Shown here: piece by piece, positions 2,510-8,482 of the stretch | Layout: each line of letters begins with the position of its first letter | How positions within the stretch are numbered: position 1 is the first letter of the stretch | NCBI GenBank assembly: GCA_963741955.1 | Contig: CAVUKB010000005.1 | Span: 608,001 to 672,000, forward strand | Length of the DNA: 64,000 nt | Origin: an uncultured Acidobacteriota bacterium | GTDB lineage: Bacteria > Acidobacteriota > Thermoanaerobaculia > Gp7-AA8 | Direction of reading: 5' to 3' | Made by a program: the position numbers and the translations under genes | The notes under the pieces: model-generated | What the model saw: only the letters and a program-made list of their open reading frames with translations | The model's database searches: none | Told to the model about the DNA's origin: nothing

Positions 2510-2633
2510 CGTTTTTCTCTGCATCCAGCATCTTGCCCAGCTGTACAGAAAACTCGTCTCCAACGGTCGATACACCCCAATCCTCAGGGATGACACCCAC
2601 TTCCGTCAGCTTGTATCCGGTCCTCACTTCCAT
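2510..2633 (-). pseudogene. hsdS: Type I specificity subunit HsdS, N-terminal ~41 codons only
   Basis: ATG at 2633 overlaps the hsdM end. Reads MEVRTGYKLTEVGVIPEDWGVSTVGDEFSVQLGKMLDAEKN (typical HsdS start) and is then cut by ISL3. Confidence 0.88.
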
Positions 2634-5050
2634 GATGCGCCCATGCGTTTCAGGTGTTCCTCGACGCGCGAAGCGAGAAATGCCACTTCATCAGTGAGCT
2701 GCGGCAGGGGGGAAGCGTAGCGTTCGGCCAGCTCTCGAATGCGGCCGGTCAGAGTCTGTGACACGCGGTCCAGCTCGCCCTGCACCTCCGCCGAGAGGCG
2801 CGTCATCCATTTGTCGTCCACCACCAGCGCCTTGATCTCGGCCTCGGTGAGCTTCGGATACTTCGAGTAGGTGAGCTTGTCGAGCACCGCTTCCTGCTCC
2901 TTCACGGCACGCTTGAACGTGACCTCACTCTCGGAGAGCTCTAGCCATCGCGTGAGCACGACTGCCTCGTCCTTCGCATCCTTGTCGCCTTTGATCTCCT
3001 TCAGCCTTGCGCTGACCTCGGCCTTCGCGATCTTGTCGAGCGAACCGAGGAAGCCATCTTCAGCGCCGTGTTCCTCCTCCAGCTCGGTGAGGCCGGCAGT
3101 GGCGGCTTCGAGCTCAGCCTGTTGCGCGTCGAGCGCGGCCTGTTCGCTCGCGAAGTAGCGCGCGACGACGAGCGCCTTCGGGATCAGATCGCAGGTCCAT
3201 CCCTTATCCTTCTGCTTGCCCTTCTTGTCCGTCACCACGCTGCGTGCAGTGCGCGCAGCCCAGCCGTCAGCGGCGATGAGATAGGCGTCGTCCTGCATGG
3301 TCTCGTTCCAGTAGTCCATGAGGTGCTGGTAGATGTCGTACGCGTCGAGCAGCGGCACATTCTTGAATCTGTCGAGCAGGCTCTCGGCGATCGTCTCGAT
3401 GAGTTCTTTCGGGTGGCCGTCCTTGCCGAAGGCCATGAGCTGCGGGGTGGTCGTCGCCCGCCATGCAGCGAAGCGCGCGCCTGCGGCCTTATTGAACGCG
3501 GCGAACTCCGAGTGCCCCAGGACAGCGGTCTTCACCTCGGTGAGCGGCACCTTGATTTCCACGTAGCCGGGGCGCCCGGCGGACTCGAAGAGTGCGGCAC
3601 GAATAGCGGGGAGCACGGTCCAATAGTCTGCCAGCGCATCGATGTCGCGCTCGGGGATGCCGCCGCGCAGGTGCGCATCGATGTTCTGCAGGTCCTCGGG
3701 CTCAGAGCTGTCGATGTAGCGCGGCAGGTTCAGGTTGTAGTCGTTCTTCGGATCGGCGATCTCATCGAGGGGAACCATGCGCGCGTAGCGCGGCACTTCA
3801 ACCTGGCGGGTGAAGGTGTCCACGATGCGGTGGATATCCTGCGCTCGCAGGCGATTCTTCGGCCCATCCTTCATAAAGCCCTTCGAGGCGTCGATCACGA
3901 AGATGCCCGTTCGCGAGGCCGCACCTTCCTTGTCGAGAACGACGATGCAGGCCGGGATGCCTGTTCCAAAGAAGAGATTCGGCGGGAGCCCGATGATCCC
4001 CTTGATGTAGCCGCGCCGCACGATCTCACGACGGATGTCGGCCTCGGTATTCCCGCGGAACAGGACGCCGTGCGGGAGAATGATCGCGCCCTTCCCGGTG
4101 CTCTTGAGGCTCGCGAGGAGGTGCAGGAGGAACGCGTAGTCGCCGTTCTTCACAGGCGGGATGCCGAGGGCGAAACGCGCGTAGAGATCGTTCGCAGGAT
4201 CAAGCCCGTTGCTCCACGCTTTGGTGGAGAACGGCGGATTCGCCACCGCGAAATCAAAGGTCTTCAGCTTCCCGGTCTTGGGTTCTGTGAAGTGCGGCGC
4301 CGAGAGCGTGTTGTCCTTCCAGATCTCACCCGTCGGGCAGTCGTGGAGGATGAGATTCATCCGTGCGAGAGCGGCGGTCGCGTTGTCGTTCTCCTGGCCG
4401 TAAACCGCGAGGTCGAACCCCGTCGAGCTCTTCGCTTCGTCGTGCGCTTTCAGGAGCAGGGACCCTGACCCGCACGTCGGATCGTAGATCGTCTGGCTCG
4501 CGTTCTTCGCGCTCCCGAGCCCGATCACCTTCGCCATGATCCGGGAGACCTCGGCGGGGGTGTAGAACTGCCCCTTGCTCTTGCCGCTCTCCGTCGCGAA
4601 GTGGCGCATGAGGTACTCGTAGGCGTCGCCGAGCAGATCGTCCCCGTCCGCACGATTCGCCCGGAAATCGAGATCGGGCTTGTCGAAGATGCCGATCAGA
4701 TTCGAGAGCCGATCGACCATGTCCTTGCCCTTGCCCAGCTTGTCCTCGTCGTTCCAGTCGGCGACGTCGATCACGCCCTTCAGGTCGTTCGTCTCGGCGA
4801 GCTTCGCGACGATCTTGTTCATCTTGTCGCCGATCTCTTTGTCGCCTTTCAGGGCGATCATGTCGGCGAAGCTTCCGCCCTTCGGGACATCGAGCAGGTA
4901 GTTCTTCTGGCTCGCGGCCTTGTCGGAGACGTACTTCACGAATAACAGGACGAGGACGTAGTCCTTGTACTGCGAGGCGTCCATCCCGCCGCGAAGCTCA
5001 TCGCAGGACTGCCAGATGGACGAGTAGAGTTGTGACTTTTTGAGTGGCAT
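2624..5050 (-). CDS. hsdM: Type I R-M methyltransferase subunit
   Basis: LRGGMDASQYKDY, GQFYTP, YDPTCGSG (SAM binding) and ANPPF (N6-MTase) motifs. Confidence 0.96.
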   Translation of the reverse strand: MPLKKSQLYSSIWQSCDELRGGMDASQYKDYVLVLLFVKYVSDKAASQKNYLLDVPKGGSFADMIALKGDKEIGDKMNKIVAKLAETNDLKGVIDVADWNDEDKLGKGKDMVDRLSNLIGIFDKPDLDFRANRADGDDLLGDAYEYLMRHFATESGKSKGQFYTPAEVSRIMAKVIGLGSAKNASQTIYDPTCGSGSLLLKAHDEAKSSTGFDLAVYGQENDNATAALARMNLILHDCPTGEIWKDNTLSAPHFTEPKTGKLKTFDFAVANPPFSTKAWSNGLDPANDLYARFALGIPPVKNGDYAFLLHLLASLKSTGKGAIILPHGVLFRGNTEADIRREIVRRGYIKGIIGLPPNLFFGTGIPACIVVLDKEGAASRTGIFVIDASKGFMKDGPKNRLRAQDIHRIVDTFTRQVEVPRYARMVPLDEIADPKNDYNLNLPRYIDSSEPEDLQNIDAHLRGGIPERDIDALADYWTVLPAIRAALFESAGRPGYVEIKVPLTEVKTAVLGHSEFAAFNKAAGARFAAWRATTTPQLMAFGKDGHPKELIETIAESLLDRFKNVPLLDAYDIYQHLMDYWNETMQDDAYLIAADGWAARTARSVVTDKKGKQKDKGWTCDLIPKALVVARYFASEQAALDAQQAELEAATAGLTELEEEHGAEDGFLGSLDKIAKAEVSARLKEIKGDKDAKDEAVVLTRWLELSESEVTFKRAVKEQEAVLDKLTYSKYPKLTEAEIKALVVDDKWMTRLSAEVQGELDRVSQTLTGRIRELAERYASPLPQLTDEVAFLASRVEEHLKRMGASWK

Positions 5051-5351
5051 GGGCGATTTATGAACCTCTACCTCCGCGGTCGGACGGCACTCGCGGTTCG
5101 TTCGGGACCGCCGGACGATCAGGAAGCGCTCCCACGCTCATGCTACCGAAAGGCACGGCTTCGCGATAGGCCAATCCTCGATCCACCCCCGCTTCGCCAT
5201 CTCCTTGCAGGGTTATCTCTTTGCCCATTTCGGCGTGAGGGAGGTGGATGGATCCGTGAACAGGGACCCGTCGCCGGAGGCCGGGCAAGTGAAAACGCGG
5301 GGCCTAACGGCCCCGCGTCTGGAGTTTGGCGTTTCTCGAGCAAGGCGCGAG

Positions 5352-6764
5352 CTACGAAGTGGCGTACTGGACAGCCATTTCGGGGGTGACAGCGGATTTC
5401 GAGCGCTTCAGGTGTCGTGCGACGGGGGTCTGGAAGTCGGTGAAATTGGGGGGTTCGAAGTTGCGGATGTGGCGAATGCAGGCGGATCGCATCGCGCGAA
5501 GGTACTGGCCGGTGGGTATTCGCCACTGATCGGGGATATCGTTGTCTCTCCACTTGGGCATCAGTTCGGGGGGCGCAGTGGAGCCGAGGCCGAAGCAATC
5601 GGCGGCAGCGAGGAGCATCATCGAGTAGACGGCTACGGCGAAAGCGGGCAGCGAGTCGACCGATCGCCGGTTGCGCACCTGCGCCTGGCCGACACCGAAG
5701 ATCTGCTTTTCGTCGCGGTGATTGACCTCGATATCCCAGCGGCGGAAGTAGGCTTGGACGAGCTCGACGAGCGAGAGTTTCAGGTCGGTACAGATCAGGA
5801 ACGCCGGTTTGCGATACAGCAGGCGTGATTTCTTGCGGAGCCGATAGCCCAGTGGCCGGATCACGACGAGCCGCAGAGGCAGTTCATAACCCGAAGTTTT
5901 CCAAAGCACGGGACCGATGGTCTTGATCGAACAGGCGTGTTCACGACCCGAGGCCCAGACTTGGACCTGTTGCCAGTCGATGGATTGGTCCACGCGGAGT
6001 TGATCGGGTGTTGGGGCCTGATCGCCATACCAGCGCTTGCGTCCGCGAAGCGGTTGAGAGTTTGGAGGAAAGAACAGCTTCGCGTCGCCTCGGATGCGAC
6101 CGATCAGGATCGTTCGTTCCGGCAAGTTCCGCAGAACCGTACGGTTGGTGTAACCGCCGTCAACCACCGGCATCAGCACGCGCTCGCTCGCTCCGAGCTG
6201 GTCAAAGTCCTTGCGAGTTTGGATCAGCAGACGCGTTGCACCGATGGAAAGATTCTGCTCTTTCTGCTGGCGACGATACTCGGCACGTTCCTGCTCGGTT
6301 GCTCCGGCCCCCGGGCGAACCGCCGGAGGCTGGTGATTGAACCGGATCGGGAAGCTGCGCGCCGGACCGGCAGACTGGCCAGTTAAAGGAACACTGATCG
6401 CAGCCTGAATGAACCGTTGGGCGCGGATCAAGTTCGTGTGGAAAGGCGGCGACATCGGATCGCGCTGATAACTCACGCCTGGGATCTTCATGCCCGTCTT
6501 GCGCAACTTCGTGTCATCCAGCGGCAGCACCAGCGGTGCGTCGAGCGGCAAGTACGCGAGCAGGTGTCGTTCGATGACTCTGAACATCTCGCTCACATCG
6601 AACCGACCCTCCGAGAAAACGCGATAGTCTGCCGACCAGTCCTGCTGCGGATCGCGGCCTGCTTCAATCATTCCGCTTACCGTGTGTCGCCCGGTGCAGT
6701 TGAGCAGGCCGATGGCCAACCCACGAACCCGCTGAAGCACCCGAGCATCACAGGATCCATTCAA
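5352..6764 (-). CDS. DDE transposase, IS701/IS4-superfamily type; true 5' end uncertain
   Basis: LPLDDTKLRKTG, VVDGGY and YFRRWDIEVNHRD motifs. Frame stays open upstream to the A9 tract near 6811-6819. Confidence 0.9.
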   Translation of the reverse strand: MNGSCDARVLQRVRGLAIGLLNCTGRHTVSGMIEAGRDPQQDWSADYRVFSEGRFDVSEMFRVIERHLLAYLPLDAPLVLPLDDTKLRKTGMKIPGVSYQRDPMSPPFHTNLIRAQRFIQAAISVPLTGQSAGPARSFPIRFNHQPPAVRPGAGATEQERAEYRRQQKEQNLSIGATRLLIQTRKDFDQLGASERVLMPVVDGGYTNRTVLRNLPERTILIGRIRGDAKLFFPPNSQPLRGRKRWYGDQAPTPDQLRVDQSIDWQQVQVWASGREHACSIKTIGPVLWKTSGYELPLRLVVIRPLGYRLRKKSRLLYRKPAFLICTDLKLSLVELVQAYFRRWDIEVNHRDEKQIFGVGQAQVRNRRSVDSLPAFAVAVYSMMLLAAADCFGLGSTAPPELMPKWRDNDIPDQWRIPTGQYLRAMRSACIRHIRNFEPPNFTDFQTPVARHLKRSKSAVTPEMAVQYATS

Positions 6765-6804
6765 TTCGTCGAAGATCGCGTTGAATGAGCGAAGAAGATT
6801 TCGA

Positions 6805-7014
6805 TCAGCGTTTTTTTTTGACCCGCTTCGCTTCGACGGTTCCGGTCGGATCCTTTGCCCGCTTGAGGATCAGCGTTCGCTTGTCCTCGATGACCCATTC
6901 GACGATCTCACCGCGAATGAATTCACAAGCTTGGGCCACGGCCGCGGGAAGGTTCACGTACCACTGCCTGCTCTTTGCACGAGCGATCAGCTGCACTTTG
7001 GTTGGAAATCCCAT
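6805..7014 (-). CDS. Small AbrB/MazE-like DNA-binding protein (69 aa) inside the IS
   Basis: AGGAGG RBS before ATG 7014. MGFPTKVQLIARAKSRQWYVNLPAAVAQACEFIRGEIVEWVIEDKRTLILKR fits the swapped-hairpin pattern. Confidence 0.72.
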   Translation of the reverse strand: MGFPTKVQLIARAKSRQWYVNLPAAVAQACEFIRGEIVEWVIEDKRTLILKRAKDPTGTVEAKRVKKKR

Positions 7015-7121
7015 GGTGACCTCCTTCTGGTCTAGTGATATAACTAGATACCACGGGACGAAAAAAAAGTCCAGAATTCCTGGACTTCCGCCCAACGACT
7101 CCGAGTTCCGCCAAACTCCAG

Positions 7122-7145
7122 ACGCGGGGCCTAACGGCCCCGCGT
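7122..7145 (-). terminator. Hairpin (10-bp stem) just after radC; the copy at 5295-5318 retains the T-tract
   Basis: ACGCGGGGCC-GTTA-GGCCCCGCGT on the minus strand, followed by TTT in the reconstructed empty site. Confidence 0.55.
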
Positions 7146-7150
7146 GAGAA

Positions 7151-7732
7151 TCACATATTGCCGAGCTGCCGCAGTGAGGCAAACCGGTTCGCGCCGAGGA
7201 TCAGGTGATCGAGGACGTCGATGCCGAGGACCTTCCCCGCCTCGACGAGCTTCCGCGTGAAGAGGAGGTCCTCGCCGGACGGGGCGGGGTCGCCGGACGG
7301 GTGGTTGTGGAAGACGATGACCGCCGCAGCGTGGTCGTCGAGGGCGTGGCGGAAGATGTCGCGCGTCGACACCGTCGCACAATCAAGCGTGCCGACGTAG
7401 ATCTCGCGCTCGCGGACGATGCGGCTTCGCGCGTCGAGGTACACCGCGCCGACGCGCTCCTGCACCTGGTGCGCGTAGCGCGCGATTAACGTCCGCGCGA
7501 GCGCAACTGGGTCGCGGAGCGGACCGTTCGGCGAGTCCGTCGTCGACGCGATCCGCCGGCCCAGCTCGAGCGCCGCGGCGATTTTCGCCGCGGTCGCCGC
7601 GCCGACGCTCCCGCGCGCGCGGCTCCCGCCCCACTCGCGCCGCGCGAATGCCGGGAGGCCGTCGCGCACGAGGTCGCGGCCGAGCTCGAGGGCGTTCTTC
7701 TTACGGGTGCCGTTGCCGAGGATGACGGCGAG
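7151..7732 (-). pseudogene. radC: RadC/JAB-domain protein, 5'-truncated
   Basis: LAVILGNG...AAALELGRR...HNHPSGDPAPSGED...LDHLILG. The usual N-terminal PRE(K/R)L segment is missing. Confidence 0.85.
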
Positions 7733-8482
7733 ACGATTCCCGATGCCGTCGCACTCACGCCCGAGGAATTTCGTAGCGTGCTCGCCGTGGTTTCTCCACC
7801 TAACAAAAGGCGGTTCATTTTCGCGGTGACAACGCTGCTCCGAAGGACGCCCCTTTTCGCGCTGCAGGGCAAGTGGATCGATCTCGAGGCAGGACGGCTC
7901 CACGTAGCGGCGGCATATCAAATGAAAGGCCCGGCAAGGCGCCGGAGTCCGCTCGATGTCCCGCTTTCGCAGTGGAGCCTCGAGCAAGTACGGGATCTCG
8001 CTGCCGCGACGGATGGCTACCTCTGGCCGAATCCCGCGACAGGGATTCCGATGCGCTGGGTGGATGGTATTTTTCGCAGCGCCTTCGAGAAGGCGGGCGT
8101 ACGGCCCTTCAGCGCGCACGATCTCCGCACGACGGGCGCGAGCTGGCTCCGTGCCGCAGGAGTCGACGAGCTCGTCATCGTGATCCTACTCGGGCATCGA
8201 GGCTCGTTCGACGCTGGCGGGCAGACGCATCACGTGCGAAGCGCGGAAGTGACCCGGCAGTACACGAAGGTGTTCAATCGCGCACTCCAGGAGGCGGTCG
8301 CGGTGTTCGACACCTTGCGCCTCGAGATCGATCCGCCGGTGGCCGGCTGCGCAGAGGAAGGCGCCAATGAGAGCGCTCGTGAGAGTGCGCACGGCGTCGA
8401 TCTCACAAGCTATTGGACGGGCAGGAGTTACGGCGGGCAACTGGCGTCCCCAACGGGATTCGAACCCGTGTTGCCGCCGTGA
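7730..8482 (+). pseudogene. Tyrosine integrase, catalytic C-terminal domain only
   Basis: LTPEEF...LLRR...HDLRTTGASWL...LLGH...TRQY (R-HxxR-H-Y). Frame runs antisense into the tRNA-Glu 3' end. N-terminal domains are absent. Confidence 0.8.

Follow-up and report, generated by a model that had tools for sequence, protein, structure and literature searches.

An IS701-family insertion sequence of Acidobacteriota and its clade: probable target choice by hairpin structure, with duplication of the whole hairpin

The subject of this work is an intact insertion sequence (IS) of the IS701 type, found in a 64,000-nucleotide stretch of DNA from an uncultured Acidobacteriota bacterium (Thermoanaerobaculia, Gp7-AA8; assembly GCA_963741955.1, contig CAVUKB010000005.1, positions 608,001 to 672,000), which is referred to below as the window. 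A 24-bp perfect hairpin stands in identical copies at both ends of the element, and the best explanation of what we observe has it as an active member of a large, uncurated clade whose DDE transposase probably recognizes the structure of its target DNA rather than the sequence, inserting at hairpins and duplicating each hairpin whole. Across this clade the duplicated DNA is a hairpin, the targets have no sequence in common, the cuts are symmetric on the two sides, and the boundary of the duplication follows the end of base pairing.

Results and Discussion

Five copies of the element and their targets

The hairpin ACGCGGGGCC-TAAC-GGCCCCGCGT occupies positions 5295-5318 and recurs at 7122-7145 in identical orientation, and as such constitutes a direct repeat; an exact repeat of 24 bp cannot be ascribed to chance. 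The left copy, folded with DNA parameters, gives -15.0 kcal/mol with 10/10 pairs formed. An earlier note on this DNA had described an IS with 13-bp inverted repeats (IRs) lying between directly repeated hairpin copies, and the sequence at 5295-5318, 5319-7121 and 7122-7145 agrees with that description in full. The source genome (G000; 5.44 Mb in 16 contigs) carries five copies of the element (L001 to L005, the window copy being L003), which are 100% identical over exactly positions 1-1803, with identity ending precisely at the boundaries that correspond to 5319 and 7121. Every one of the five is flanked by an exact duplication that forms a hairpin, and comparison of the flanks, as the earlier note had suggested, returned a different duplicated hairpin at each copy (Table 1). 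Perfect hairpins (stem of at least 8 bp, loop of 2-5 nt) number 2,109 in the 5.44 Mb, or 0.39 per kb; that a hairpin adjoins 10/10 ends of the five local copies is far outside chance at this density.

Since identical copies carry differing duplicated hairpins, the arms are target DNA and not the tips of the IS. Taken by itself, the window would also fit a reading in which the arms belong to the element, giving 23-bp IRs and a true duplication of only the 4-bp loop TAAC: the right end and its arm, reverse-complemented, give GGCCCCGCGT followed by CTGGAGTTTGGCG, and 4 bp is the usual duplication of IS701 elements (PMC2266710). This alternative, which the earlier note had kept in view, is refuted by the copies, which share only positions 1-1803 and are flanked by unrelated hairpins with differing arms and loops. 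A unitig from a public soil-metagenome run stops exactly at 5319 and at 7121, and related elements repeat the pattern with many other hairpins, such that we give the alternative practically no credence.

The unitig in question comprises exactly 5319-7121 as a separate sequence, and its coverage of 62.5x stands against 14.1x for the left flank (approximately 4.4x); furthermore, separate contigs of the same run cover the IS junctions on both sides of the window locus. Contigs from public runs (X1 and X2; window 4700-7700) also contain two more junctions into hairpins outside the five assembly sites, which mark additional sites of insertion in the populations sampled.

The state of the sites before insertion was approached by joining flank, a single copy of the repeat and flank, and matching the product against the genome. 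L002, L004 and L005 lie within arrays of ~200-bp tandem repeat units resembling repetitive extragenic palindromes (REPs), and the hairpin of L004 and L005 belongs to a family of such units whose 21-mer occurs in 108 copies in the genome. The reconstructed empty sites of these three match uninterrupted paralogous units across the junction (33 spanning matches for L002, 168 for L004 and 173 for L005), the L005 site agreeing with a neighboring unit at 97.8% over 227/227 bases; because uninterrupted units span the junction, a single hairpin was present before insertion. L001 and L003 occupy unique sites, and no empty allele of their own locus was found among genome matches (0/3 spanning for L003, 0/77 for L001). 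The look-up of empty sites envisaged in the earlier note thus succeeded through paralogous units at three loci and yielded none for the window locus or L001. At the window locus the reconstruction reads, on the minus strand, radC stop, 5 nt, hairpin and then TTTCACTT, much as the earlier note had proposed when it placed a hairpin and tail right after radC. The public runs gave a single joint, at 7219-7386; one of its sides is 23 letters long, and the joint is unrelated. As a side observation, the ~200-bp tandem-repeat arrays are the main local landing sites, taking 3/5 copies. No miniature inverted-repeat transposable elements or solo ends were found in the genome, in which exact matches to the terminal 13-mer are only the 10 ends of the five copies.

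Hairpin duplication in related elements

In a scan for relatives, each species was represented by one genome. The scan yielded 80 loci with transposases of 37-58% identity by best segment, spread over Thermoanaerobaculia and other Acidobacteriota, Opitutales and other Verrucomicrobiota, Planctomycetota, Kiritimatiellae and further groups. Within its own class the element is patchy, with a match in 4/201 genomes, G000 included. Element ends were anchored on the conserved terminus CTGGAGTTTGG with at most 2 mismatches; both ends were located in 59/85 loci, and of those 59, 36 are flanked by exact repeats 12 bp or more in length. These 36 elements, which include the five G000 copies, are distributed as 5/5 in G000, 5/6 in an Acidobacteriota genome (where the sixth element has the same hairpin shifted by 1 nt), 16/16 in an Opitutales genome, and 10 single elements. 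Their duplications run from 12 to 28 bp (mean 20.9), all distinct save within one repeat family, and when folded, 35/36 form a hairpin that spans the repeat. Near-exact repeats flank a further three elements (L009, L013 and L085). Loci L089 and L091 enter into none of these results.

Duplication length correlates with the maximal hairpin length at the site (r=0.87, 36 elements), and the overhang past the last base pair does not differ between the two sides; it is +1 nt in 26 elements, 0 in 3, -1 in 3, +2 in 2, -2 in 1 and +3 in 1. When each distinct end flank is taken once, 105/113 adjoin a hairpin (stem of at least 6 bp) with its foot 0-2 nt from the IS end, at exactly 1 nt in 75, while the same criterion at random positions in the same loci is satisfied in 203/11,200 (1.8%). 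Loci at which a single end was located likewise adjoin hairpins (e.g. L006, L015, L026, L047, L062, L066, L073 and L074). Loops and flanking bases are without consensus, and the element is found in both orientations within the same repeat family. The earlier note had supposed that the transposase cuts at the base of an extruded cruciform; the location of the cut is well supported, in that the boundary tracks the end of pairing in 36 elements, and the cruciform is the part of that supposition that we infer.

One could envision instead a fixed stagger of ~21 bp, or two helical turns, on ordinary duplex DNA with a mere preference for symmetry and no extrusion. The lengths do cluster at 18-25 bp around a mean near two turns of B-DNA, and on one and the same palindrome the cut differs by 3 bp per side between L004 and L005. 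However, the full range of 12-28 bp tracks hairpin length, duplication length varies more by itself (standard deviation, SD, 3.2) than after hairpin length is subtracted from it (SD 1.8), and the 26/36 boundaries that fall exactly 1 nt past the last pair do so on both sides. As the target sequences share nothing, an enzyme reading plain duplex could not sense where pairing ends, and we consider the fixed stagger to be improbable.

A different question is whether the hairpin matters as a structure or as a transcription terminator, given that the earlier note had proposed terminator targeting as a means of finding safe harbours. An IS might seek intrinsic terminators in this way through, e.g., the T-tract or the transcription machinery. 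The window site is terminator-like, with a GC-rich 10-bp stem followed by TTTCACTT and lying 5 nt past radC; L001 sits between convergent genes, and several relatives' hairpins have T-rich tails. Against this, a simple terminator scan of the window did not list the flanking hairpin, 3/5 local sites lie in the ~200-bp repeat units without a T-tract, and the T-rich tail is missing at many of the relatives' sites. Furthermore, L033 in the Opitutales genome splits a Kelch-repeat gene, with Kelch domains (Pfam) on both sides in one frame, and two other insertions in that genome are probably intragenic, L036 in a beta-propeller gene and L040 in an endonuclease gene. These three were checked by Pfam; stop-to-stop frames span 31/36 sites, a count that is uninformative in GC-rich DNA. 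Terminator targeting as such is therefore very improbable: it describes L001 and L003, whose unique hairpins lie 3' of gene ends, and fails for the other three local copies in REP-like units. Likewise, the safe harbour stands as a tendency and not as a rule. The determinant is the hairpin, and intergenic placement follows mostly from where hairpins lie.

At E<=1e-20 there are at least 3,375 homologous protein clusters (8,000 candidates scored); among the best 120, 32 have a source name, all of them generic, and most are on contigs of ~1.8 kb. Members of the clade are common among uncultured bacteria of soil and water.

Origin of the trait

The nearest plasmid matches, a nearly identical pair of copies on Microvirga ossetica plasmids (L095 and L096), have a transposase that is 25% identical and termini, CTTGAGTTTGGCC and CTGGAGTTTGGCC, that are similar to those of the clade, but their duplications are plain 5-bp ones (TTGAG and CTTAG) without hairpins. 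Given that this outgroup makes 5 bp and that the published norm for IS701 is 4 bp, hairpin duplication is a trait that arose within the clade. Three subclades can be told apart by the small upstream open reading frame (ORF): AbrB-like, HARE-HTH and DUF6788. The HARE-HTH type is seen in L051, L054, L070, L076 and L078 (PF05066 at 1.7e-8 in L051 and L054), and the DUF6788 type in L079, L080 and L083 (PF20586 at 2.8e-11 in L080 and L083). While the DDE core has been conserved, the DNA-binding module upstream of it appears, judging from these sequences, to have been swapped between subclades. Hairpins flank the elements of all three subclades, and since the upstream ORFs differ where the hairpin flanks do not, the specificity for hairpins would reside in the conserved catalytic core.

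A proposed mechanism of target capture

In DDE transposition the target is duplicated because the two 3' ends of the transposon join the two target strands at staggered positions, leaving 5' overhangs. A product of the form L-H-IS-H-R (flanks L and R, hairpin H) means that each strand was attacked 5' of its own copy of H. Insertion takes place at short, near-perfect inverted repeats able to form hairpins, and we propose that such a repeat would be extruded, as a hairpin or a cruciform, when it is captured by the transposase. On each target strand, one 3' end of the transposon would then be joined at the hairpin's 5' foot, as a rule 1 nt past the last pair, and repair of the gaps would copy the entire hairpin, leaving the IS between two identical hairpins of 12-28 bp. 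Were the captured structure a cruciform, the attack sites would lie on opposite sides of the four-way junction, each 1 bp into its flanking arm, and the effective stagger would be ~2 bp, a spacing that may be considered comparable with the 5-bp stagger of the conventional distant relative. Extrusion is implied because the boundary lies where complementarity ends although the targets have no sequence in common, such that the enzyme must sense a paired structure.

Several observations weigh against this proposal, or at least against its simplest form. Stems of 6-12 bp extrude poorly unaided, and a protein would therefore have to induce or trap the structure; extrusion at capture and the chemistry of the cuts are deduced here from sequence. 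In three public runs, the window element is not bridged by any contig. Fourteen elements are flanked by two different hairpins; their contig names suggest short-read assemblers, and we tentatively put them down to assemblies that joined different copies or to copies that had recombined, a reading supported by one hairpin that is at once the right flank of L027 and the left flank of the related L028. L067 has a 12-bp duplication with only a 4-bp palindrome, and the hairpin at L036 is weak. One hairpin with an 11-bp stem was duplicated at both L004 and L005, over 21 bp in the first case (boundary 2 bp inside the foot) and over 27 bp in the second (1 nt beyond it), and so the cut is symmetric yet not rigidly tied to the foot of the hairpin. 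Finally, the 36 sites are not all independent, 4 of them belonging to one repeat family of one genome. Aside from these points, the left hairpin is absent at L070 and L071.

The ease with which stems of 6-12 bp fold in single strands, as opposed to their poor extrusion from duplex, also raises the prospect that the captured structure is a hairpin in transiently single-stranded DNA, such as the lagging-strand template or the transcription bubble at a terminator, with the second strand cut or joined later. The terminator-like character of some sites would be in keeping with this. Symmetric cuts on two strands together with a clean duplication require both strands at one place, however; many sites are REP-like or intragenic and not terminators, and the occurrence of both orientations within the same repeat family reveals no strand bias, albeit in a small sample. 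We regard a single-stranded target as unlikely. Returning to extruded duplex DNA, we can offer a more specific account, in which the transposase captures the cruciform or itself extrudes it and attacks symmetrically across the four-way junction in the manner of a Holliday-junction resolvase, the change of stagger having arisen in the catalytic core; this is quite possible, but we advance it tentatively.

Relation to known systems

The closest parallel in the literature is IS1272/TnSha1 of staphylococci, a member of the IS1182 family that targets hairpin-forming inverted repeats, including terminators (PMC4923244, PMC5678879). Like the present clade, it is a DDE-type IS that has no specificity for a primary sequence, accepts hairpins of differing size and sequence, and inserts in either orientation. 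IS1272, however, removes or substitutes the hairpin in whole or in part without duplicating the target, whereas the elements examined here duplicate it whole. Wan et al. 2017 (PMC5678879) set out a hypothetical pathway in which joining at the 5' feet of a cruciform duplicates the entire stem-loop; in the terms of their Fig. 13, the present clade would correspond to the 5' feet (pathway b) and IS1272 to the 3' feet (pathway a). The transposase families also differ, the one here matching IS701/DDE_5, with the IS1182 family appearing in neither of our scans. It has been remarked, at second hand, that some IS1182 members target palindromes, and in the open-access literature we found hairpin targeting for IS1272/TnSha1 only, in addition to that remark. 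For IS701-type elements, we found no mention of hairpin duplication in the open-access literature, ISfinder and TnPedia lying outside that scope.

With respect to the IS701 family, the clade has the family-model match, the terminal IRs and the invariant D, D and E of canonical members. It departs from them in its duplications: the family norm is exactly 4 bp (De Palmenaer 2008, PMC2266710), or 5 bp in one subgroup, as against 20-27 bp in the local copies and 12-28 bp in the 36 elements. The 13-bp IR is present, and its terminus CTGGAGTTTGG does not fit the IS701 end signature ---YACT-Y--YR, a consensus that, according to the same source, does not represent the whole family (PMC2266710). Relative to canonical IS701, the clade further has an extra upstream ORF and a putative A9 slippage site. 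ISAba11 is the name of a group associated with the canonical IS701 family.

ISs that target REPs offer another comparison, in that they likewise insert in repetitive extragenic palindromes, as do 3/5 of the copies described here at REP-like hairpins. IS1397 and ISKpn1 (IS3 family) insert in particular REP sequences. ISPpu9 and ISPpu10 (IS110 family) are also REP-targeting elements (PMC1525189, PMC8450116, PMC12288879). Such elements recognize particular REP sequences, by means of a guide RNA in the IS110 group, and make short duplications or none; in contrast, any hairpin serves the present clade, and it is duplicated whole.

Target choice by shape alone is rare among DDE transposases, and in IS1272, the only close published case, the mechanism is difficult to deduce from genomes because the hairpin is destroyed. 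In the present clade each insertion keeps its target twice, such that natural copies record the points of attack on both strands and with them the rule of +1 nt from the last base pair. Given that the clade is abundant and its duplications long, automated IS annotation that expects 4-bp duplications will set boundaries wrongly. Terminators and intergenic or REP hairpins would stay intact on either side of an insertion, and the long palindromic repeats should favor precise excision, rendering these insertions unusually reversible. If capture of a cruciform proves correct, the length of each duplication would constitute a natural record of extruded DNA structure in living cells, and this would be the first transposase shown to perform a junction-specific, sequence-independent capture that duplicates the structure. 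It can now be tested whether the transposase recognizes or induces a cruciform, and which residues turn a 5-bp stagger into one measured by structure, with the Microvirga-type relative as a natural contrast; use of the enzyme to map or tag hairpin-forming DNA is likewise open to trial.

Transposase genes and their expression

The element contains two ORFs, A and B (Table 1). ORF B, the DDE transposase core, matches PF13546 (DDE_5) at 1.4e-16 and passes NF049999 (transpos_IS701_3) narrowly, at 171.9 bits (177.1 in a six-frame search) against a cut-off of 170, while NF033540 (53 bits, cut-off 150) falls short. The earlier note had assigned the element to the IS701 family, with its customary 4-bp duplication, and these matches, together with the literature, indicate that the assignment is right (NF049999, PF13546; PMC2266710). 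An IS1634-type transposase is not indicated, NF033559 scoring 15.1 bits against a cut-off of 100, and an IS1182-type family was not encountered in the Pfam and NCBIfam scans, which listed only IS701, IS4, IS1634 and NF041680 (a putative transposase family). D83, D202 and E346, along with N348, H349, R350 and K353, do not vary in an alignment of 14 sequences that are 35-82% identical, and from their motif context the first three are candidate catalytic residues.

ORF A gave no significant match in Pfam or NCBIfam. Its model is of low confidence (pLDDT 62.6) with a beta-beta-alpha-beta-beta arrangement, the best Foldseek matches to which are mostly of SpoVT/AbrB type and weak (E 0.27-3, none at E<=0.001); a profile of ORF A against the PDB returned 7xi6, also weakly (E 0.37), and PF04014 matched a relative's ORF A at E 0.024, which falls short of its cut-off. 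Collectively, these suggest that ORF A is probably a DNA-binding domain of the SpoVT/AbrB/MazE type.

ORF A stops and ORF B carries on at a run of nine A, and an A9 or A8 run is found at the equivalent place in 29/39 distinct elements examined. ORF B is in the +1 frame relative to ORF A in the window element, L007, L009, L011 and L029, and in the -1 frame in L008, L017, L021, L025, L035, L048, L058 and more. That a conserved run serves both arrangements fits slippage by RNA polymerase better than a ribosomal -1 frameshift, and an ORF A-ORF B fusion transposase is probably produced by programmed transcriptional slippage at A9. Runs of this kind in ORF overlaps are reported for 27 IS elements by Baranov et al. 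2005 (PMC1088944). The present run resembles those in that nine A (eight in some elements) are conserved where two ORFs overlap, and differs in that the clade's run serves ORF B at both +1 and -1.

Features of the locus

Coordinates of the element, its flanks and its neighbors are collected in Table 1, along with the duplicated flanks of the five local copies.

Table 1. Features of the window locus, and duplicated flanks of the five copies in the source genome.
Feature	Position	Strand	Remarks
Type I methylase HsdM (HsdM_N + N6_Mtase), left neighbor	2624-5050	-	~245 bp downstream of the insertion, same strand
Left hairpin copy, target duplication	5295..5318		10-bp stem, 4-nt loop; original minus-strand tail TTTCACTT kept
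Complete IS701-family IS, 1,803 bp	5319..7121	- (transposase genes)	Copy and boundary comparison, unitig, family matches
Terminal IR, transposase-distal end, CTGGAGTTTGGCG	5319..5331		Perfect, 13 bp; first 11 bases conserved in the clade
ORF B, predicted DDE transposase core, 470 aa from first listed TTG	5352..6764	-	Frame open to about 6869
ORF A, conserved small N-terminal module, 69 aa	6805..7014	-	22 sequences, 14 invariant columns
A9 run (T9 on plus strand), ORF A/ORF B overlap	6811..6819	-	Overlap region 6805-6869
Hairpin + T8, terminator-like, just within transposase-proximal end	7065..7089	-	5' of ORF A; terminator scan
Terminal IR, transposase-proximal end, CGCCAAACTCCAG	7109..7121		Reverse complement of CTGGAGTTTGGCG
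Right copy of the 24-bp target hairpin	7122..7145		5 nt 3' of the stop of the RadC-like gene (minus strand)
RadC-JAB gene, right neighbor	7151-8119	-	Stop 5 nt before the hairpin
L001, duplicated flank GCCACGAC-TCCA-GTCGTGGC			20 bp
L002, duplicated flank TCCCAGGACTCCGTCCTGGGC	contig C6:~487,200-489,600		21 bp
L003 (window), duplicated flank ACGCGGGGCC-TAAC-GGCCCCGCGT			24 bp
L004, duplicated flank TCCCCGGCATCCTGCCGGGGA	contig C5:~441,900-444,400		21 bp
L005, duplicated flank CGCTCCCCGGCAGGATGCCGGGGAGCC	contig C4:~654,500-656,800		27 bp

The terminator-like hairpin within the element probably shields the transposase gene against read-through transcription from outside, and T7-T8 runs are present at the equivalent place in several relatives. 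As to the neighboring genes, the retained left copy of the target hairpin sits between the IS and the HsdM gene.

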